A DNA stretch of 64,000 nt from Candidatus Parcubacteria bacterium (GCA_023444045.1 JAEZRQ010000005.1:37726-101725); one strand, 5' to 3'; shown: positions 5,210 through 56,757, counted from the first letter of the stretch. The notes: generated by a model from the letters alone, not told the origin. Made by a program: numbers and translations.

Positions 5210-6664
5210 ATGGCGGAACAAGTAATTTTAAGATTTGATAATGTTACTTTTGAGTATCTTCATAAAAAACCCATTCTTGATGAGGCTTCTTTTAGTGTTA
5301 GAACCGGTGCTAAAATCACTCTAATGGGTCAAAATGGGGCTGGCAAAAGTACTATCTTTGATTTAATACAGGGCAAGATAAAACCAAAAGAAGGCCAAAT
5401 TTCTATTACCAACGGCGCTAGTATTGGCACGGCTGCCCAAACAGTTAGTCGGTCTGATTTTGATTTAAATATTGAAGAGTATCTAGCTAGGGCTTTTTCA
5501 CCAGTGCCACCGAATTTGCGTAGCCATATTGCTAAAGTTTTGACGGCCGTTAATATGGAAATTCCGCTTGATAGAAAAGTGGGCAATTTATCTGGAGGAC
5601 AACAAGCTCGTTTACTTCTGGCATATGCCCTAATCTCTAATCCGGATATTTTACTACTTGACGAGCCCACTAATAATTTAGACAAAGAGGGAATTGATCA
5701 TCTATTAGAATTCTTGATTATGTATGACAAAACTGTAATTGTTATTTCCCATGATGCTGATTTCTTAAATTGTTTTACAGAGGGTGTTATCTATTTAGAT
5801 GTGCACACCCATAAAACAGAGACATATGTTGGCGACTATTATTCTGTGGTTGAAGAAATTTCTAGAAGGATTGAAAGGGAGCAGATGAAAAATGCTCAAC
5901 TGCAAAAACAAATTCTTGACCGTAAAGAGAAGGTTAACTTTTTTGCTCATAAGGGCGGGAAAATGCGTAAATTAGCTCAAAAAATGCGTGAAGAAACTGA
6001 AGAACTAGAAGAAAACATGGTTGATGTTCGCCGAGAGGATAGAACTATCCGTAAATTTGATATTCCGGTGCAAGAGGATTTATCGGGAGCAATTGTAACT
6101 ATTAAATCAGTAAAAATTATTAAAAACCATGAGCCAATTGTTAAGCCACTAGAAAAAATAATTACTAAAAAAATTCATTTATTAGTTACTGGCCCTAATG
6201 GAATTGGTAAAAGTACTTTTTTAAGAAGTTTAGTGTCTGGTGAATCTGAGGGGGCAGAAATTGCTAAAAATGTTAAAGTTGGCTACTACAGTCAAGACTT
6301 TGCCACCTTAGATTTTAATGACACCGTTTTTGACTGCTTACTTAAAGCCATGCCTGATCGTGATGATGTACCAACTATGCGCTCTATTGCAGCCGGATTT
6401 TTAATTACTGGTGATTTAATGGGGCACCGCGTAGGCGACTTGTCTGAAGGACAAAAAGGTTTATTATCACTGGCTCGTTTGGTACTGATGAGACCAGGGC
6501 TCCTAATTTTAGATGAGCCAACTAATCATATTAATTTCCGTCACCTACCAGTGATGGCTGAAGCTTTTAATGATTACGAAGGTCCGATGATTATCGTCAG
6601 TCACATGGACGAGTTTGTTCAATCTCTAAGAATTGATGATTATCTGGAATTAGGGAAGTTATAA
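5210..6664 (+). CDS. ABC-F family ATPase (two ABC domains, no TM domain)
   Basis: Two cassettes: GQNGAGKST / LSGGQQARLLL / LLLDEPTNNLD and GPNGIGKST / LSEGQKGLLSL / LILDEPTNHIN. A charged linker separates them. Confidence 0.85.
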   Translation: MAEQVILRFDNVTFEYLHKKPILDEASFSVRTGAKITLMGQNGAGKSTIFDLIQGKIKPKEGQISITNGASIGTAAQTVSRSDFDLNIEEYLARAFSPVPPNLRSHIAKVLTAVNMEIPLDRKVGNLSGGQQARLLLAYALISNPDILLLDEPTNNLDKEGIDHLLEFLIMYDKTVIVISHDADFLNCFTEGVIYLDVHTHKTETYVGDYYSVVEEISRRIEREQMKNAQLQKQILDRKEKVNFFAHKGGKMRKLAQKMREETEELEENMVDVRREDRTIRKFDIPVQEDLSGAIVTIKSVKIIKNHEPIVKPLEKIITKKIHLLVTGPNGIGKSTFLRSLVSGESEGAEIAKNVKVGYYSQDFATLDFNDTVFDCLLKAMPDRDDVPTMRSIAAGFLITGDLMGHRVGDLSEGQKGLLSLARLVLMRPGLLILDEPTNHINFRHLPVMAEAFNDYEGPMIIVSHMDEFVQSLRIDDYLELGKL

Positions 6665-47946: not shown

Positions 47947-48225
47947 ATGAATACCACCGTGATAAATATTAAAACTAGTGAAGAAGTAAAAAAAGAGGCT
48001 CAGAAAATAGCCTCTGATTTAGGTTTAAATCTAAGTGTGGTAATTAATGGCTTTTTAAAACAGTTAGTTAGAAATAAGGCCGTCTTTTTTACTTTAGATG
48101 AGAGTCATCCAAGTAAATATTTATTAAATTCTATTAAAGAATCAAAAAGCGATAAAAAAAATAAAAATACGCATTCTTTTAAAAATAACCGAGAAGCCCT
48201 CTCCTTTCTTGATGATAAAAAATGA
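47947..48225 (+). CDS. RelB/DinJ-family type II antitoxin
   Basis: 92 aa. The N-terminal ribbon-helix-helix-like INIKTSEEVKKEAQKIASDLGLNLSVVINGFLKQLV parallels DinJ. ATGA overlap with the toxin gene. Confidence 0.8.
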   Translation: MNTTVINIKTSEEVKKEAQKIASDLGLNLSVVINGFLKQLVRNKAVFFTLDESHPSKYLLNSIKESKSDKKNKNTHSFKNNREALSFLDDKK

Positions 48226-48491
48226 AAATAGAATACTCTAAAAGATTTATTAAAGATTTTAGAAATTCACCAAAATACATAAGGAATAAGTTTAAGTTAT
48301 GCTTAGAAATTTTTATTGAGGATAAAAATAATAGGCTACTTAATAATCACCCACTTGTAGGAAGACTAAGTAGCTACAGAAGTATAAACATCACCGGAGA
48401 TTGGCGAGCGATTTTTGAAGAGTTAAATGACAATATTGAGATTACTGCCTATTTTATTGCTATCGGCACTCATAGCCAACTTTATAATTAG
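48222..48491 (+). CDS. RelE/YafQ-family type II toxin (mRNA interferase)
   Basis: 89 aa. NHPLVGRLSSYRSINITGDWRAIFE...IGTHSQLY matches the RelE/YafQ C-terminal pattern. Confidence 0.8.
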   Translation: MKIEYSKRFIKDFRNSPKYIRNKFKLCLEIFIEDKNNRLLNNHPLVGRLSSYRSINITGDWRAIFEELNDNIEITAYFIAIGTHSQLYN

Positions 48492-48590: not shown

Positions 48591-50720
48591 TTATTTTATT
48601 ATCCCTCCCTGCCCGCTTAGAACTTTAGCTCTGAAGGCAGCCTCACTAGCCTCTTGCTCGTTACCTAAATTACTATGAATCTCTGAAAGTAAATTCCAAG
48701 ATTCAGCACTATTTGGCTGAAAGACAACTAGTTGTTTGGCCATGACTAGAGTTCTATCCCAATCTTCCGCTAAATAGTAATGCTCTGCTAACTCTAAAAA
48801 CTCAGTACTCATATTTAAGGTCTCAGCGCCGCCAAAATCAACACATTTATCACCGTTTGCAAAAGCTAACTCATCTTCACCCGTCATCTTATAAAACTTA
48901 AATAAATTGCAGTAGGCATCAGGAAAATCTGGGTTAAACTCAATTGATTTTGTCACTAGAGCGATTGCTTCATCAGATCTGTCTAGCATCATTAAAATAT
49001 TAGCCTTAAGGAAATATAGAGGTAAGCGCTGTGGACTTAAAGCAATAGCCAAATCAAGATGTTCTAAAGATTTTTCAGTATAAGCCTCATCTTTAGTGAA
49101 GTTAAAAGCCAGGCCATACATTTGGGCGGTCTGTAACTGCATTAAACTATCTTGGGGGTTATTCAGTAAATTCTCTTGAGCTAATTTTAGAGCGTAATCT
49201 ATTACTATTTTTTTATCTTCATCACTTAAAGCCTCCATAAACTGTGTGTTACTCATTAGACCATTTAAGAAAGAATTTTTGCCATCACGATCAAGCGGTG
49301 TTTCATTTTTAAAGGCATCTTGATAGGTGCTTACTGACTCCATAATCTGCCCTTGCGATAATAAACGGTAGCCATTAATAACGCCACTAAAAGTTTTCCA
49401 CGGTTTAATATTAAAGTGATTAGTTAAAATTAAAACCAGTAATAATCCAATAGCTAAAAGACTAGTCTCTGGAATTTTCTTTTCCGTTTCTTTTTCTGAA
49501 TTGGGGTTAATTAGATAATAAATATAAGCCAAAGAAATCATCAGCCCAATATAAGTCACCAGAGAATCAAAAATGGCTAGATTCTGAATAAAGTAAGCGA
49601 CAAAGAGGCCAATTAAAATAATCGGCTCTAAATTATGACGGTCCTGCTTGATAATTCTAAGTAGATAAAAAGCAACCGCTATAAAAATGCTTAGATAAGC
49701 GATTAAGCCAACCAGCCCAGTGGTTGAGACAATATCAATTAGATTATTATGAGCCCGATCAAAATAAGTGTCGCCTCTAGAATATTCATAAAAACGAGCA
49801 TTAAAGTGGCGGTCAAAGATGTCGGCATAGTTACCAAAACCAACCCCAAACCAAGGGTGATTATGAAAGTCTTTAGCAGCTGCTTCCCAGGAAACTAAGC
49901 GGGTTTGAAAAGTATTTTTTTGTGAGGTTAGGTTCCTTAAAAAGGAATTCTGAAACCAGGCGGCTTCTTGCTGAGAAAAGATAAAGGTAAGAACTAAAAT
50001 AGCCACCGCTAAAGCACTCCAAGCGGCAATTTTAATCTTTTTATTCTGATGCAGAACACCAATGAGGAAGACAACAAGAAGAACACTGATTCCTAGGCCA
50101 ATAATCGCCCCTGAGGTGCGTGTTTTACTAAATTCCAGTAACATTATTAGAACTGGAATTAGCAAACTCCAGCGCCAATTTTGGCCCTTAGCCCGATAAA
50201 ACAAGAGAGCGGCAAAATAGATATTAAATATGATATAACCACTAACATAAGCAGTATTGCCAATAGTGCTATAAGGATTACCAGCTAAACCAATCACACT
50301 AACGATAGTAGCAATCAAAACTGAAGAACCCAGAAGAATCTGCCAGTCTTTTTGAGTTCTAAAAACAGTGATCAAGATTAAATAAAGAAAAAAGAAGTGG
50401 ATAATATGAAAAACGCCAAGCATTCTCTCCGCATCACCCCAGAAACTAAGCAAGGGGTCAACACTAGAAAAACAGGACCAAGTAATAGCCAAAAGAAAAG
50501 CAACTATTCCCCAAGTGATAAAAGACCTTTTAGGGCGATATGAAGGAAACTTCCAGATAAAGATTAACCAGAAAACCATCAAGAACTCAGTTAAAATATT
50601 AAAGGTTAACTGCTTGGAAGTGATATACGGAAAAAGCAAACCGGAAAAGACTAAAAAAACAGTCAACAAAGAAGCGATAGCTCCTATTTGTAATAAGCGA
50701 AGATAGAATTTTGAAGTCAT
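48591..50720 (-). CDS. O-antigen ligase-like polytopic membrane domain fused to a C-terminal TPR repeat domain
   Basis: 709 aa. About 12 hydrophobic segments with the RAHNNLIDIVSTTGLVGL motif. The C-terminal ~280 aa have TPR-like repeats (AIALVTKSIEFNPDFPDAYCNLFKFY...). Confidence 0.75.
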   Translation of the reverse strand: MTSKFYLRLLQIGAIASLLTVFLVFSGLLFPYITSKQLTFNILTEFLMVFWLIFIWKFPSYRPKRSFITWGIVAFLLAITWSCFSSVDPLLSFWGDAERMLGVFHIIHFFFLYLILITVFRTQKDWQILLGSSVLIATIVSVIGLAGNPYSTIGNTAYVSGYIIFNIYFAALLFYRAKGQNWRWSLLIPVLIMLLEFSKTRTSGAIIGLGISVLLVVFLIGVLHQNKKIKIAAWSALAVAILVLTFIFSQQEAAWFQNSFLRNLTSQKNTFQTRLVSWEAAAKDFHNHPWFGVGFGNYADIFDRHFNARFYEYSRGDTYFDRAHNNLIDIVSTTGLVGLIAYLSIFIAVAFYLLRIIKQDRHNLEPIILIGLFVAYFIQNLAIFDSLVTYIGLMISLAYIYYLINPNSEKETEKKIPETSLLAIGLLLVLILTNHFNIKPWKTFSGVINGYRLLSQGQIMESVSTYQDAFKNETPLDRDGKNSFLNGLMSNTQFMEALSDEDKKIVIDYALKLAQENLLNNPQDSLMQLQTAQMYGLAFNFTKDEAYTEKSLEHLDLAIALSPQRLPLYFLKANILMMLDRSDEAIALVTKSIEFNPDFPDAYCNLFKFYKMTGEDELAFANGDKCVDFGGAETLNMSTEFLELAEHYYLAEDWDRTLVMAKQLVVFQPNSAESWNLLSEIHSNLGNEQEASEAAFRAKVLSGQGGIIK

Positions 50721-51094: not shown

Positions 51095-54000
51095 CTAGTT
51101 TTTAATAGTAACACCATCAACTTTAGTAGTTGATAATCTTAAATCAGTCTTATCAGAAGCTGTTAAAGCGTCTTTCCAAGTAAGATTTGTAGTTAGATCA
51201 TCTAAACTTACATTGATTGAACTATCACCAGCAATAGCTGCTGTGAATGTTGGGACTACTTTTACTAAGAAGTAAGCTGTTTCACCAGGCATAACTTCAT
51301 AATCAGCGCCAGAAAGAGTAGCAAAAGTAGTTGATGTAGCAGCTGGGGTTCCAGTTACTGCAGCAGCGGTACCATTTACTCTTTCGATAGAAGCAGTGTA
51401 AGAAGTAATCTTAGAAGAAGTTGCAACTCCTACAACAATTTGACTGATTCTAGTTTTAATAGAATCACCATTTTGTTCAGTGTTAGAAGAAACTGGAGCT
51501 GTTACTGAAATAATAGCAGCATTAGCAGCTTGTCCATCTGTAAGACTTAATGAACGACTTACATTTCCAGCGCTACCAACTAAATCAATACTAGAAATCC
51601 TAGAAGCAACAACAGCCATTTTCTTAGAAACTTGTGTTGATACAGCGCTAGAAGTAATACCAGCAGCGGTATAATCAGTGCTATAACCAATTTCACCAGA
51701 ACCTAAAATAGTATCAGCGCCATTGTTGACTAATGATTCACCAGAATTATATCCAGTAGCCTCAATGTTGTTTACTTTTAAAGTAATATCAGCAGTTGAA
51801 GTACCGGTCTGGTCTTTTCCAATAGGAGATAATTTAGCTTTTACGTAATAGTTCTTTGAACTCATTGGAACAATCATTTTATCACCAGAAATCTCAATAA
51901 CAGAGCTTGTGGCAATAATATTAGTAGAACCAACTAAAGTAGAACCGTCGTAAATACCTAATTCGGTAACTAGACCGTTTAGATTTTCGCTAGCCTCAAC
52001 AGTTAACTTAGTAACTTTAACAGTTTCATTTTCTGCTTTTAATTTTAAAGCAGCAAGAGCACCTGTTTCAGCGCCAGCTAATTGGTAAGAATCTCTATTT
52101 GTTGAAGAATCACCATTATCCATTGCAACATATAAAGATCCAGTACCAACCATAGCAACTGTTCTTGCAGAAACTAAAGTTGTCCATGGGCTAGTTGGGG
52201 TTGGAGTAATAGTTTTTCCATCACTAGCTTCAATACTAGCATCTTTTAAAGCAAATTTAATGTTTTTTGTAGAAGAATCAGTATTCTTTACAAAAGAAAC
52301 AGTTACTTTATAAGTGTTTGTATCATTTGCATTAACCTTTTCACTTAAGTCAGTGAAGGTTAAATCAGTACCACCACCAATTTGTGAAGATGATACAGTT
52401 TTAACTAATGAATCGCCCTTCCAAAGCTTAACAGCAGAAACTGTCTGAGTGCTGAAAGCAAGGCTTCCTGATTCCTTTTCGATTGTTAAATCTCTAAGAT
52501 AAGCATCGGAATTTTGAGCTGCTTTAACATTGAAGTTTAGAACTTCAACATCTGAAGTGCCAATAACAGCAGTATAAGATGATGATAAAGCGTTTAATGA
52601 GAAAGTAGCACCGGCTGTTTCTACAGCAACTTTCTTAAGTTCAACTGTATTAGGAGTAATGTCACCAATTACAGTATCATTGCCAGTTTCTTTAATGATT
52701 AAATCATTAGCAGCATCTGCAATTTTTACAGTGTAATCTTCGTTAGTGGCAGTTGATAAGGTATCAAATCTGACTACTAATTCATTTGTAACACCACTGG
52801 TTAACATTAAGCCCATGCTTGTATTAGCATAAACTTTTACACCAGAAGCTGTAGTTGTTGAAACATGAGACAAATCATAAACAGTGTTATTAGTCTTGTT
52901 GAAAACTTCTACATTCTCAATCTTGGTGAAAGATGAAGTTGCAGCAATATTATCATTAGTTGAAGTGATTGTTAATCTTAAAGTTGATAATTCAGCATTT
53001 TTACCGCTATTAGCAGTAATCTTGAAGGTACCAATTTCTTGATTATCAACATCAACTCTTAATTTATCACTAGCAGCATTAACTTTCTCAATGCTAACAG
53101 TACCAGCTTTAACAGTAACCAATCTTGATGTTAATGTAGTTGCGATTTGTGATTGGTATCCATAGTAATCACCAGTTGCCACAACATCAGAAGCAGCTTC
53201 GATAACAAGACCAATTGTTTTTCCTGCTCCATCAACTACGTCAGCAGTAACAGTTAATCTCTTGTTAGAGATACTCTTATTGATAGTAATTGGGTTGTTC
53301 AATGTAAAAGTAACATAACGATTTGATATAGAAGGTGCGCTAGCAACCTCTTGACCATCGAAATTTAGTTTTAGATTTTCAACAACACTATCAGAAGCGG
53401 AACTTGCAGGGTCCTTTTTAAAGGTTATTGCTTTAACGGTAATGTTTTCAACATCGTCATTAGCTAATTTTACTTTAGCAATAGTAGCACCTTTATCACC
53501 TAATTTTACTTCAGATAAAGCACTGTCGTCAGTGAAAGTTAATTTACCAACGGCGACAGTAGCTGCAGTGAAAATATTACCAGCAACTGGGAATGAACCA
53601 GAAACAGTGTTTCCAGCCATAACATCAGAAGCTTTAGCAATACTTAAACCATGCTTACCGGTTCCTGCAGAAATCAAAGCTCTTACTTCGAAAGTAGCAG
53701 TTGTTCCAGCTGGAATAGTTACAGCATTTGTGAAGTTAATTTGCGCCTCTTTATTTGAATCAATGTCACGAGCAGTGTTATTTAATTTAACATTATCTTT
53801 GTAAACAGAGATTTTCTGAATGTTTTGAGGGGTCCCCAAACCAATAGCACTTAGCTTGACTCCAGAAATCACAGCTGGACCATCGTTAGCAGCAGTAATA
53901 TTGAATTTCAACATTGTGTTTGCTGTACCGATAGGTAGGTCGTTAGCAGCTGGGGTAGTAGCTGATAAGCTGACAGTTACGCCAGAACCAGTTACAACTG

Positions 54001-54685
54001 GACCAGTGGTTTTGCTTTGTGGAACATAAGCGAATTCGCTAGTAGAGATAGCTGAACCACCTGCAGTAATAGCAGAAGAAACAGTAACTACGTTAGCGAA
54101 ATCAAATCTATTAGCATTGAAGGCTGCTTCGTTAGCAATAGAGCGATAGTTAGCACCATCATAGTAATAGATAGTACCAGAATCAGCTGTTTTTACTAAA
54201 GTACCAGCAGGAACTTCATTAGCTGCTAGAGGAGTTCCGATGGTGTAGTTGGTGAAGAAAGCGTCAGCAACGTCAACAACTCTCTTTGCCCAATTTGCAC
54301 CAAACATAGCGATAGCATCAGCTTCGCTTTGGATTTTTCTTAATACGCCATTTGGTTCAACAGCATATACAGAAGGATCAGTAGTGATCTTAATTAATTT
54401 TGTACCTGGTCTCATTACAATGTTAGAACCTAATGGGTAGCTCTGTAATTCTGAAGCAGAAACAGTTACTACGCCACTGAAATCCTTGTGCCATGAGAAG
54501 TATACAGCCTCACTTGGATAAACATATCTTTTACCGTCGTTGCCCAAGTAATAAACGGATGATAATCCGTCCATCTTGATAAGGTCGCCAGCTTGTGGAG
54601 CGGCAGCGCTTGCGCTTAGACCAAGCATTGAAAATGCAGTCATGACCATTACGCCAACGGTTAAAAACTTGCGTAATTTTTTCAT
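51095..54685 (-). CDS. Giant exported Thr/Ser/Ala/Val-rich surface protein (S-layer/adhesin-like), hypothetical
   Basis: ORF 51095..54718. Preferred start is ATG 54685 (MKKLRKFLTVGVMVMTAFSMLGLSASAAAP, a signal peptide), giving 1196 aa. No Cys. Long beta-rich repetitive body. N-terminal LIKxxxxSSVYYLGNDGKRYVYP module. Alternative start at 54718. Confidence 0.8.
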   Translation of the reverse strand: MKKLRKFLTVGVMVMTAFSMLGLSASAAAPQAGDLIKMDGLSSVYYLGNDGKRYVYPSEAVYFSWHKDFSGVVTVSASELQSYPLGSNIVMRPGTKLIKITTDPSVYAVEPNGVLRKIQSEADAIAMFGANWAKRVVDVADAFFTNYTIGTPLAANEVPAGTLVKTADSGTIYYYDGANYRSIANEAAFNANRFDFANVVTVSSAITAGGSAISTSEFAYVPQSKTTGPVVTGSGVTVSLSATTPAANDLPIGTANTMLKFNITAANDGPAVISGVKLSAIGLGTPQNIQKISVYKDNVKLNNTARDIDSNKEAQINFTNAVTIPAGTTATFEVRALISAGTGKHGLSIAKASDVMAGNTVSGSFPVAGNIFTAATVAVGKLTFTDDSALSEVKLGDKGATIAKVKLANDDVENITVKAITFKKDPASSASDSVVENLKLNFDGQEVASAPSISNRYVTFTLNNPITINKSISNKRLTVTADVVDGAGKTIGLVIEAASDVVATGDYYGYQSQIATTLTSRLVTVKAGTVSIEKVNAASDKLRVDVDNQEIGTFKITANSGKNAELSTLRLTITSTNDNIAATSSFTKIENVEVFNKTNNTVYDLSHVSTTTASGVKVYANTSMGLMLTSGVTNELVVRFDTLSTATNEDYTVKIADAANDLIIKETGNDTVIGDITPNTVELKKVAVETAGATFSLNALSSSYTAVIGTSDVEVLNFNVKAAQNSDAYLRDLTIEKESGSLAFSTQTVSAVKLWKGDSLVKTVSSSQIGGGTDLTFTDLSEKVNANDTNTYKVTVSFVKNTDSSTKNIKFALKDASIEASDGKTITPTPTSPWTTLVSARTVAMVGTGSLYVAMDNGDSSTNRDSYQLAGAETGALAALKLKAENETVKVTKLTVEASENLNGLVTELGIYDGSTLVGSTNIIATSSVIEISGDKMIVPMSSKNYYVKAKLSPIGKDQTGTSTADITLKVNNIEATGYNSGESLVNNGADTILGSGEIGYSTDYTAAGITSSAVSTQVSKKMAVVASRISSIDLVGSAGNVSRSLSLTDGQAANAAIISVTAPVSSNTEQNGDSIKTRISQIVVGVATSSKITSYTASIERVNGTAAAVTGTPAATSTTFATLSGADYEVMPGETAYFLVKVVPTFTAAIAGDSSINVSLDDLTTNLTWKDALTASDKTDLRLSTTKVDGVTIKN

Positions 54686-55101
54686 ATTTGTGTTTAAGGA
54701 TTCAGAAGTAAGTGTCATTAAAATAGTAGTAATAACAACTTCCTCCTGAGATTTTTACTCAGATCAAGCGCCAATCAACGGAGATTCCATCAAATAAATC
54801 GATCGGAATCCCGCTCCTCTAGAACGAATTCTAAAGAAAAGCTAAATCGATTTACCATCAGAACTTCCAGCCGATTTTTGCTTCTCACTGAGTTTTTTGG
54901 TTTTTAACAGAACGAAAGCCATCTCTTGCGAGACTCGACCCTTTACGGGGTTTCGCTGATCCGTCTAAAGCGAACTTTAAAGCGGACCTGTTAATTTATC
55001 TCTTCCGTTTGACCAAATCAGATGAATCAGAAATGACGAATCTTCCGAGAAGGGGTTGGGGGTGAGATAAACTAACAGCTCAGCCTTAAAATTAAGGCAG
55101 A
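54686..55101 (-). promoter_or_regulatory. Long ORF-free, hairpin-rich 5' leader (or independent structured RNA) upstream of the giant surface-protein gene
   Basis: About 380-415 nt with no ORF of 60 aa or more in any frame. Minus-strand hairpins have stable tetraloops: UAGAA-UUCG-UUCUA (54820-54833) and UCUC-GCAA-GAGA (54922-54933). A long GGAG/GATTCC...GGAATC/CTCC hairpin spans 54780-54817. CTGAG/CTCAG (54746-54762) abuts an AGGAGG (54742-54747). Confidence 0.45.
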
Positions 55102-55851
55102 TTATTTTATCAGATCATTTACTTCTTTTAACTTGTTAAGCGCTTCAGTGTAATTCTTGCTATCAAATAAATTTTTGGCTTCTTCTAAAATCTTAGTAGT
55201 TGAAGAAACGCTTGGCTCTACAGCAGTAGTCACATCATTAATGCTTAGACCACTATCTTCTTTTTCCAAAGTGGCACTTAAAATTAAATCGGAAGAGGTG
55301 CTGCTTGGTTCGCTTGTATCATTTTTTTGTACAAGCGGTTGCTCTAGTCTAGCTACCTTGCGTTGTACTGTTTCAATCTCTTGATTAAAACGAACGTTTA
55401 ACTTAGCAATTTCTTCTTCATTGTTAAATTCTGGGTCAGCCAAAACGGAAGTAATATCTTGAGCGTTATTGGCAGCAAATTTAACCGCCATCTTCTCTCT
55501 TTCATTAGTATCTAAGATGGTGCTTAATTTTGCCTTTTCAGAAATTTCTCTGGCGATATATAATGACTGGTCTGGTCTAGTTTTAGAAAGTAATAGATGC
55601 GCATAAGAACTAGAAGCAAAAACCACTAGTAATAATGAAGCCAAGGCAACGGCCGGACTGGAAGCGGTTTTCACTAAACTCTTGAAGTTAATCACAAAAG
55701 CGGTCCATGAGGACAGATTAGTGGCTCCAGAGTTGGAAATTTGGGAATACAAAGAATCCCGATTCGCTTTTAACCAGCTAGAATCGGGTTTAATTTCCCT
55801 AAGATTAGATAATTTTTTGATTAAATCTCGGTCAGTCATAAAATTGCGCAT
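55102..55851 (-). CDS. Anti-sigma-like single-pass membrane protein (DUF5667-like, tentative)
   Basis: Start refined to ATG 55851 (MRNFMTDRDLIKKLSNLREIKPD...); 55839 is also possible. Central TM AVALASLLLVVFASSSYAHLLL. Helical extracytoplasmic domain. Lies directly downstream of the ECF sigma gene. Confidence 0.6.
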   Translation of the reverse strand: MRNFMTDRDLIKKLSNLREIKPDSSWLKANRDSLYSQISNSGATNLSSWTAFVINFKSLVKTASSPAVALASLLLVVFASSSYAHLLLSKTRPDQSLYIAREISEKAKLSTILDTNEREKMAVKFAANNAQDITSVLADPEFNNEEEIAKLNVRFNQEIETVQRKVARLEQPLVQKNDTSEPSSTSSDLILSATLEKEDSGLSINDVTTAVEPSVSSTTKILEEAKNLFDSKNYTEALNKLKEVNDLIK

Positions 55852-55927: not shown

Positions 55928-56506
55928 TTACTTCTCCTCTGCCTCTAGCAGTTCTTTAAGGGCAGCCAAAGAACGATGAAGTAGTACTCTGATGTTGCCT
56001 TTAGTTTTGCCAGTGACTTCACTAATTTCATCAAGCTCCAAATCGTTCACAAATTTTAAAACAATAATTTCCCGGTATTCTTCCTTAAGTAAAGGTAACT
56101 TGCTCTTTATTTTAGCCAGATCATTCTGCCTGTCAATTTCCTGATTTAAGTCCTTAGAATCATCTACTATTTCAATTGGTCTTTCTTCATCGTCTAAAGA
56201 AAACTCTACTTTAGAGCCATTTTCCCGGTAGTAATCAACAATAGAAGTTCTGGCAACTTTATAAAGCAAGGCTCTTAAAGTACTGGCGCTGGTTAAACTA
56301 TTGTTCTGAATATGATTCCAGGTCTTAAGGAATATCATTGAGGTTAAATCTTTTGCCTCCTCAACGTGCCCAATCTTAAAATAAACAAAGCGATAAATAT
56401 CGCCAGCAAAATTATCATACACCTCAATAAAGACTTCCTTGTCTTTATTTTTAAGACGGCTAATAGTTTGTTTATCTTTAAATTTTTGAACTAATGATTG
56501 TGCCAT
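55928..56506 (-). CDS. ECF-type sigma-70 family factor
   Basis: 192 aa. Region 2 (IYRFVYFKIGHVEEAKDLTSMIFLKTW) and region 4 HTH (EISEVTGKTKGNIRVLLHRSLAALK). Confidence 0.85.
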   Translation of the reverse strand: MAQSLVQKFKDKQTISRLKNKDKEVFIEVYDNFAGDIYRFVYFKIGHVEEAKDLTSMIFLKTWNHIQNNSLTSASTLRALLYKVARTSIVDYYRENGSKVEFSLDDEERPIEIVDDSKDLNQEIDRQNDLAKIKSKLPLLKEEYREIIVLKFVNDLELDEISEVTGKTKGNIRVLLHRSLAALKELLEAEEK

Positions 56507-56757
56507 TTTCTTCTGAAATTTTGATACAAAACAAGGGAATGATTAAAGTTCCCCGCTCTTATAATCCTATTTTCGTTATCAAATTCTAGCATAGCTGGGT
56601 GAAAAAAGCAAGGTATCAAAGAGTTTTTAAGCCTAAAATAGACTACGCTTTTTAAGGATTTTTCTTCTAAAAAATAGTTCCCTAGACTTGACTTTTAATT
56701 ATTAATAGGTAAGAATTAAGTTACTTCTGTCTAAGATATGTTGGACTTAAATACTAT

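Follow-up and report, generated by a model that had tools for sequence, protein, structure and literature searches.

The stretch of DNA analysed here (64,000 nt; hereafter the window), which comes from a Candidatus Parcubacteria bacterium (GCA_023444045.1, JAEZRQ010000005.1:37726-101725), carries on its minus strand genes for an extracytoplasmic function (ECF)-type sigma factor, an anti-sigma-like protein and a surface protein with a signal peptide, in that order. The gap before the surface-protein gene, at 54686-55101, holds the element described in this work, a long structured leader (Table 1). The sigma protein places the organism in the lineage Patescibacteria / Candidatus Falkowbacteria. 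Searches of Pfam, NCBIfam and the PDB with the surface protein returned zero matches. Between species, its first ~250 amino acids are 57-75% identical and the other ~900 only 23-35%, and a conserved anchor with a hypervariable exterior is a pattern typical of S-layer and other exposed proteins. The protein is probably S-layer-like and probably the cell's main surface protein. The leader region has a G+C content of 0.38-0.43, against 0.27-0.32 in other nearby intergenic stretches. A preliminary description of the region had reported an anti-sigma-like open reading frame (ORF) ending at 55102, followed by a hairpin-dense gap with no ORF of at least 60 amino acids in any of the six frames. The position of the stop codon and an ORF scan confirm both parts of that statement; the ORFs that reach into the gap are a 57-amino-acid ORF on the plus strand (54576-54749) and the surface-protein ORF itself when read from an in-frame upstream ATG at 54718.

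Folded in silico on the minus strand, the region reaches -129.7 kcal/mol (z = -5.34), and none of 100 dinucleotide shuffles was as stable; on the plus strand z is -1.65. Because the fold exceeds its shuffles far more on the minus than on the plus strand, the earlier choice of the minus strand as sense was correct, although the argument then offered for it, the presence of stable tetraloops, does not generalise across relatives.

More than 100 related Candidatus Falkowbacteria loci bear the structured RNA, among them loci in the complete genomes OW818634.1 (L016) and CP066698.1 (L046). We collected 80 species-representative loci by aligning sigma orthologs and searched them with the intergenic DNA of the window. 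More than 60 of the 80 matched 1.3-2 kb downstream of the sigma gene, with E values down to 1e-70 and still of ~1e-20 where the sigma proteins are ~63% identical. In all loci with a sigma identity of at least 50% and enough downstream sequence, the RNA is present and is followed by the N-terminus of the surface gene. In an independent retrieval, the invariant RNA 18-mer AGCGGGATTCCGAYYRAT, used alone against metagenome contigs, returned 120 loci. A profile search found the whole element in 46 of these; the remaining 74 match the 18-mer by chance, in roughly the number that a database of this size would yield. The surface-protein N-terminus (57-72% identical over ~250 amino acids) begins at the 3' end of the element, on the same strand, in 46 of the 46 RNA-positive loci, and on every contig that extends far enough the anti-sigma and sigma genes are located upstream. 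The profile matches the window copy at 55115-54671 (nhmmer, E = 1.5e-60). The element occurs once per locus, with no further copy in the 64-kb window, in any locus or in the viral contigs searched.

The element varies in length, from ~400-415 nt in the window clade, which is the shortest, through ~460-520 nt in most species to 600-650 nt in one group. Where the sigma proteins are 43-53% identical, as they are in the most distant loci (L071, L073, L075, L076 and perhaps L074), just two modules, P3 and J, are recognisable, 60-115 nt before the ATG. Because only these persist there, we regard them as the universal core: a bulged helix with an invariant GGGAUUCC internal loop, and an upstream hairpin preceded by a AAGGUCGA loop. 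Gene order at the locus also varies, with extra genes between sigma and anti-sigma or a 255-266-amino-acid ORF between anti-sigma and RNA (L006-L008, L011-L015, L018, L020, L025, L035, L040, L043, L065, L071, L073, L075, L085, L103 and L114). The junction between the RNA and the surface gene is uninterrupted in all loci, even in those with varied synteny.

Covariation supports the structure throughout. The five closest sequences already show compensatory changes (UCUC/GAGA, UCCC/GGGA, UCCU/AGGA and UUCCAC/GUGGAA). We aligned 42 species with plain MAFFT. From this alignment RNAalifold derived 74 pairs, 32 of which have changes on both sides; the long-range helix (LR) and the hairpin H2 came from a helix scan. 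We compared a hand model of 87 pairs with versions whose partners were slid by 1-3 columns and with 500 column shuffles. In this model, which was partly derived from the alignment that scores it and whose compensatory counts are of related sequences and not of independent events, 95.5% of cells are paired (32-46% when slid), 41 pairs are changed on both sides (18-27), 316 cells are changed on both sides (58-89) and the covariation score is 0.319 (0.05-0.11), values that none of the 500 shuffles reaches. A test of the J domain avoids that circularity, as its register was set solely by the anchors GCTTTT[CT] and GCGGGATTCCG in 84 distinct sequences. Here J1 (11 bp) is 97.8% paired with 5 of 11 pairs compensatory, J2 is 100% paired and J3 is 96% paired with 5 of 5 compensatory; 41 chance-match loci form 4.05 of the 11 J1 pairs. 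A covariance model of the J domain, R1, gives true members 54-131 bits, untrained divergent ones included, the window copy 69 bits and chance loci at most 29 bits. Together with the 18-mer, this model provides a clean metagenome marker for the RNA family and the surface-gene locus.

Of the well-occupied alignment columns, 21% are invariant. Helix P1 is 100% paired, with 8 of 12 pairs never varying. Its arms form an almost perfect, near-invariant inverted repeat of 14-15 bp, as might be expected of an operator, a promoter or a regulator-bound repeat acting at the DNA level. Such an element accommodates neither the G-U pairs nor the strand asymmetry of the fold z score nor the compensatory changes at 41 helix positions, and on these three grounds we rejected a DNA palindrome or operator; the G-U at P1 columns 101/214 (GU 30, GC 11) fits an RNA on the minus strand. 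A decayed coding sequence, named in the preliminary description as a possible refutation, fares no better. Variability by codon phase (0.84, 0.87 and 0.82) lacks 3-nt periodicity, stop-free stretches are short and unconserved, no conserved ORF was found in the element and none of 60 amino acids exists in the region, and we rejected this candidate as well. We give a DNA-level element or a decayed gene almost no credence. The region is an RNA-level structure on the sense strand. The preliminary description had staked its view of a long structured surface-gene leader on conservation and covariation in relatives, and both are present, the former in more than 100 loci and at a fixed distance from the start codon.

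Table 1. Genes and RNA features of the locus in window coordinates; paired strands are joined by 'with'.
Feature	Position	Strand	Details
ECF-type sigma gene	55928-56506	minus	Pfam Sigma70_r2/r4; NCBIfam sigma70-ECF, 73 bits against a cut-off of 42.9
Anti-sigma-like gene	3' end 55102; stop codon TAA 55104-55102	minus	249-259 amino acids, membrane-spanning
Candidate sigma-70-type promoter	55131-55104	minus	TTAAAA, 16 nt, TG-n-TAAAAT; inside anti-sigma 3' end; consensus match only
Whole conserved RNA	54686-55098	minus	window copy ~400-413 nt; profile match, fold z score
Optional 5' hairpin	55098-55083	minus	GCCUUAA-UU-UUAAGGC, directly after anti-sigma stop
P1 domain	54979-55087	minus	long irregular hairpin
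P1 extension	55087-55083 with 54983-54979	minus	
P1 base	55080-55078 with 54988-54986	minus	
P1	UGUUAGUUUAUCUC 55077-55064 with GAGAUAAAUUAACA 55002-54989	minus	near-invariant
P1 apical helix	GAAGA 55045-55041 with UCAUC 55025-55021	minus	
Hairpin H2	GGUCCG 54988-54983 with CGGAUC 54963-54958	minus	
P3 module	54910-54957	minus	
P3 closing helix	AGCGAAACC 54957-54949 with GGCUUUCGUUC 54920-54910	minus	
P3 asymmetric loop	54943-54935	minus	conserved, ..AAGGGUCGA
P3b hairpin	54934-54930 with 54925-54921	minus	loop GCAA 54929-54926; 6/6 pairs compensatory
Long-range helix LR	ACUCAG 54893-54888 with CUGAGU 54762-54757	minus	encloses J domain; 6/6 pairs compensatory, 91% paired
J domain	54855-54794	minus	
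J1	GUAAAUCGAUU 54855-54845 with GAUCGAUUUAU 54804-54794	minus	
J2	GCUUU 54842-54838 with GGAGC 54817-54813	minus	invariant, tandem G-U
J3	54834-54830 with 54823-54819	minus	UUCG cap in window clade
J internal loop GGGAUUCC	54812-54805	minus	invariant; 3' strand between J2 and J1, opposite AA/UA
3' hairpin	outer 54745-54738 with 54713-54706; inner 54736-54730 with 54720-54714	minus	
A/U-rich spacer and start codon	54705-54686; ATG 54685-54683	minus	predicted unpaired
Surface-protein gene	51095-54685	minus	1196-1207 amino acids, signal peptide

The optional 5' hairpin has GCGC-nnnn-GCGC equivalents in many, not all, relatives, and its 3' arm is the same AAGGC that is able to pair downstream as the P1 extension. 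Covariation in P3 is seen at columns 311/377 (CG 26, UA 6) and 314/372 (AU 30, GC 4); AAGGTCGA in this module is kept even by the most distant loci, and the linker that follows is A-rich. The three-way junction proposed earlier at this site survives in part: its closing CGAAA/UUUCG helix is P3 and covaries, but the third arm, CCC/GGG, is not general, its strand forming in most relatives the conserved asymmetric loop ..AAGGUCGA. A K-turn reading of this loop was discarded, as the consensus does not fit.

The hairpins picked out in the preliminary description divide in the same way. UCUC-GCAA-GAGA (54933-54922) proves to be helix P3b, with a GCAA tetraloop that is itself clade-specific, and UAGAA-UUCG-UUCUA (54833-54820) is the capped tip of the conserved helix J3, which in most relatives opens into a further conserved sub-domain of 70 nt where the window clade has the UUCG-capped stem instead. 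By contrast, the long GGAG-GAUUCC...GGAAUC-CUCC hairpin (54817-54780) is replaced in relatives by J2 and J1, which leave GGGAUUCC invariant and unpaired, and the local CUGAG/CUCAG hairpin (54762-54746) yields to LR, since its CUGAGU strand covaries with the distant ACUCAG. The GGGAUUCC loop is identical in 84 of 84 distinct members, the most divergent included, and is a candidate binding or tertiary-contact site. The 3' hairpin presents a conserved loop, (A)CUACUAUU(GU), at 54729-54721, and 12 of its 15 pairs are compensatory, for example at columns 716/732 (CG 20, UA 20) and 718/730 (AU 20, GC 17). Pairing of the GGGAUUCC loop with the 3' strand of LR or with the pre-AUG region was rejected as a family-wide feature, since sequence inspection found it in the window clade only. 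In that clade, GAAUCCU (54702-54696), near the AUG, is complementary to GGGAUUC (54812-54806) of the invariant J loop, and L005 preserves the pairing through G-U changes (GAGUCUU); the clade may have here a long-range contact of its own, close to where the ribosome lands.

The 3' hairpin is separated from the ATG by 16-21 nt (mode 18, 83% A+U) in the 42 species and by 20 nt in the window, and folding predicts this spacer to be unpaired in every sequence examined. Conservation continues into the first codons, ATGAA[AT]AAATTACGC, synonymous sites included. Of the two starts considered previously, ATG 54685 is the conserved one and ATG 54718 is specific to the window. Among the 47 ORFs of at least 120 amino acids in the whole window, two have a Shine-Dalgarno (SD)-like motif at -18..-4, and their leaders are A/U-rich. 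Because SD-like motifs are this rare and the relatives lack AGGAGG, the absence of an SD site is normal here and the AGGAGG at 54745-54740 incidental. The earlier remark that this motif lies too far from the start for SD function is therefore beside the point, and, the genome having hardly any SD sites, we rejected AGGAGG as a displaced SD. Several genes of the window are preceded by a recurrent ATTAACAAC motif (starts 21170(+), 25946(+), 28022(-) and 28886(-)).

The same spacing bears on whether the RNA might be an independent, trans-acting large noncoding RNA, a ribonucleoprotein scaffold or ribozyme of the OLE, ROOL or GOLLD kind, whose place between the anti-sigma and surface genes would be incidental. 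Its 400-650 nt, its multi-domain build and its invariant columns do recall the 'ornate large' RNAs, and the P1 domain may be separate from the mRNA. Yet the RNA always lies before the same gene, its distance to the ATG is fixed, no terminator-like site was found on the minus strand in the leader or between RNA and gene, it is present once per locus and nowhere else, and transcript-like contigs, described below, join its core to the ORF. Since the spacing to the ATG is fixed, we consider an independent trans-acting RNA improbable; of the options that the preliminary description had left standing, the evidence favours a cis-acting leader.

Seven contigs of 3.85-4.04 kb, drawn from at least five sequencing projects (the complete metagenome records L102, L113, L198, L147, L163, L196 and L155) start inside the RNA and end 1-63 nt past the stop codon of the surface gene, at a terminator. 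Six of the seven begin in the H2 loop, with ragged ends, 3-25 nt past the 3' strand of P1. They resemble mRNAs that were assembled together with their leader and whose 5' end lies beyond P1; alternatively, the shared start would reflect an assembly break at the invariant P1 sequence. For the organism of the window itself, a transcript search returned genomic contigs only. Upstream, the anti-sigma C-terminal codons (..DKLKEVxEIIK*) are conserved at the nucleotide level, and several loci have the stop codon right against the P1 extension. There, P1 would have to be transcribed from further upstream, probably with the anti-sigma gene.

These observations invite a composite arrangement, in which the sigma/anti-sigma transcript would end in P1 as its stabiliser or terminator, and a separately initiated or processed mRNA would have only P3, J and the 3' hairpin as its leader. 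The abutting or overlapping anti-sigma stop, the six contigs that begin past P1 and the distant relatives that retain P3 and J without P1 are all compatible with it. There is, however, no U tract after P1 and, by sequence inspection, no credible promoter inside it, and H2 covaries with a P1 strand, which places both halves, at least for a time, in a single RNA molecule. We regard such a division as very improbable.

The P1 base and extension and H2 both use nucleotides 54988-54983 and are therefore mutually exclusive. Both pairings are ~97% paired and rich in compensatory changes (96.7% and 5 of 8 pairs for P1 base and extension; 97.2% and 5 of 6 for H2). The shared middle strand covaries with both partners at once: columns 95, 220 and 308 read U-A-U in 27 sequences and C-G-C in 11, in several clades, and the triple covariation extends to the sister sequences L009 and L017. 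In some species the H2 loop has 4 nt, so that the two pairings cannot fully coexist. Competing helices of this kind are the signature of a switch or of an ordered folding pathway, and two that both covary hint at the former.

In a conformational switch, riboswitch-like or protein-responsive, a ligand or protein bound to the core would choose between the P1-base pairing (55087-55078/54988-54979) and H2, and this choice would determine how the surface-gene mRNA is processed, degraded or translated, possibly coupling it to read-through from the sigma/anti-sigma operon. Separate covariation of each helix and joint covariation of the strand they share speak for this idea. The J and P3 helices covary around the invariant GGGAUUCC and AAGGUCGA loops as they would in an aptamer, and the transcript-like contigs start in the H2 loop, at the switch position. 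An expression platform is harder to find: the leader has no terminator on the minus strand, the start region is unpaired, and neither conformer is tied to a terminator or to sequestration of the start codon. The P1/H2 module is, moreover, missing from the most distant members, the gene context offers no clue to a ligand, and with short H2 loops the two pairings could equally be a folding pathway or a partial pseudoknot. A switch strikes us as unlikely.

On balance, the element probably represents a new family of large (~400-650 nt), folded, cis-acting 5' leader RNAs for the surface-protein mRNA of Candidatus Falkowbacteria. It most likely controls or stabilises the surface-gene mRNA, by a mechanism that may involve stability, translation or the binding of a factor. 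In the scheme that we propose, the leader would set an open A/U-rich ribosome landing pad behind a stable hairpin, in an organism that hardly uses SD sites, and would protect an mRNA that is presumably very highly expressed. The invariant core, consisting of the P3 loop AAGGUCGA, the J loop GGGAUUCC and the flanking invariant helix with its tandem G-U, would dock a trans-acting factor, either a protein or a small ligand, and the docked factor would tune mRNA stability, processing or translation; we argue for a specific partner because the loops are invariant. The P1 domain with its competing helices would be an accessory module, missing in the most distant relatives, that may govern processing or the hand-over from the upstream sigma/anti-sigma transcript.

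Several points weigh against this proposal. Because the transcript-like contigs begin downstream of P1, P1 may lie outside the mature mRNA. The candidate promoter in the anti-sigma 3' end is supported by consensus alone, and in some loci it is at odds with the P1 extension. The S-layer label derives from size, signal peptide and a conserved N-terminus followed by a hypervariable remainder, since the protein matches no entry in Pfam, NCBIfam or the PDB. The proportion of invariant columns and the size of the RNA surpass the needs of simple stabilising hairpins, and with the start region unpaired in the consensus fold there is no visible means of shutting translation off. A more elaborate possibility, which we put forward tentatively and think unlikely, is a sensor or feedback RNA: the invariant GGGAUUCC and AAGGUCGA loops would sense a signal or bind a protein, for example the surface protein itself or part of the adjacent ECF sigma/anti-sigma envelope-stress module, and the competing helices, with cleavage near 54960-54990, would couple envelope status to surface-layer synthesis.

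Few bacterial RNAs reach 400-650 nt and combine many covarying helices with invariant loops, and those described have repeatedly proved biochemically unusual. No such large RNA is known to have been described for Candidatus Falkowbacteria, and we found this one neither in Rfam 15 nor in the searchable literature. The leader controls, or at least prefaces, the gene for the probable main cell-surface protein of uncultured, host-dependent, ultra-small bacteria. It could reveal how bacteria of the Candidate Phyla Radiation (CPR) regulate their envelope and set up translation without SD sites. If the feedback idea holds, the leader would represent a class of large ornate RNA not recognised before in the CPR, and ultra-small bacteria that lack SD sites would use an RNA for feedback on the assembly of their cell surface.

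The surroundings of the leader have further features. We looked for an ECF-type promoter before the RNA and found no conserved candidate; the sigma gene, for its part, is preceded by an extended -10 promoter of sigma-70-like type. Relatives share this sigma-70-type promoter before the ECF-like sigma gene (TTGCttt, N14-15, TG-n-TAgaAT; window ~56540-56690, minus strand; L002-L072 ~5830-6000). About 35 nt past it, the sigma 5' leader contains a conserved terminator-like hairpin with a U tract, GGCGGG-N8-10-UCCCGUUAUUUUUUGUUAAAA, which resembles a leader attenuator. A pair encoding a ParE/YafQ-type toxin and a RelB-type antitoxin (47947-48491, plus strand) lies two genes downstream of the surface gene, and between them and the surface gene sits a Wzy_C/TPR O-antigen-ligase-like membrane protein (48591-50720). 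Many records that bear a Falkowbacteria-type locus (L001-L079) are titled 'uncultured Gammaproteobacteria', 'Bacillota', 'Planctomycetota' or 'Helarchaeota', and are probably mislabelled or contaminated bins.

We compared the element with known RNA families. At the gathering score, Rfam 15 gives 0 matches across the whole window, with RNase P, tmRNA, SRP, 6S, T-box, riboswitches, OLE, ROOL, GOLLD, HEARO and raiA among the families covered, which agrees with the earlier impression by eye that RNase P, tmRNA, SRP and 6S are not resembled. Relaxing the threshold to E values up to 10 for 54500-55300 returned noise only, and the fuller relatives L016 and L008 matched nothing (mir-39, 26 bits against a gathering score of 62). 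In the literature we found no structured RNA for CPR or Falkowbacteria, or tied to S-layer or sigma genes (the search does not include the content of one 2026 preprint on noncoding-RNA mining).

Riboswitches and T-box leaders share with this RNA a cis position before an ORF, covarying helices around invariant loops and mutually exclusive helices. They differ in their terminator/anti-terminator or start-codon sequestration, neither of which is seen here; this RNA has no Rfam match and is far larger than typical aptamers, and its context of ECF sigma, anti-sigma and surface protein gives no metabolite clue. OLE, ROOL, GOLLD and raiA (Weinberg et al. 2017, PMC5737381) resemble it in size class, number of helices and highly conserved nucleotides, and in having come to light through sequence comparison among uncultured bacteria. 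They have genes of their own, in many cases close to tRNAs or prophages, or located within operons, whereas this one is held at a fixed distance from a start codon, has a narrow taxonomic range and is without similarity to Rfam families.

The nearest parallel in position is the 5' untranslated region (UTR) of S-layer genes such as Lactobacillus slpA, where structured leaders give high expression through mRNA stability and an exposed ribosome-binding region (PMC10221546). There, too, a long untranslated leader directly precedes the gene for a very large secreted surface protein, and a stable stem-loop comes before a ribosome-binding region that is left exposed, with high mRNA stability and expression as the presumed role. 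At this locus, the leader is always contiguous with the start codon of the 1196-amino-acid signal-peptide protein without database match, and the A/U-rich spacer, predicted to be unpaired, leaves the ribosome-binding region exposed. Known S-layer 5' UTRs span tens to ~200 nt and consist of simple hairpins without deep conservation. The present leader, by contrast, has 400-650 nt in multiple domains, invariant loops and competing helices, is conserved across a candidate phylum-level lineage and stands in an SD-less context before the gene for a probably S-layer-like protein. It would work like an S-layer or riboswitch-type leader, yet by these comparisons it is not a member of any described family.

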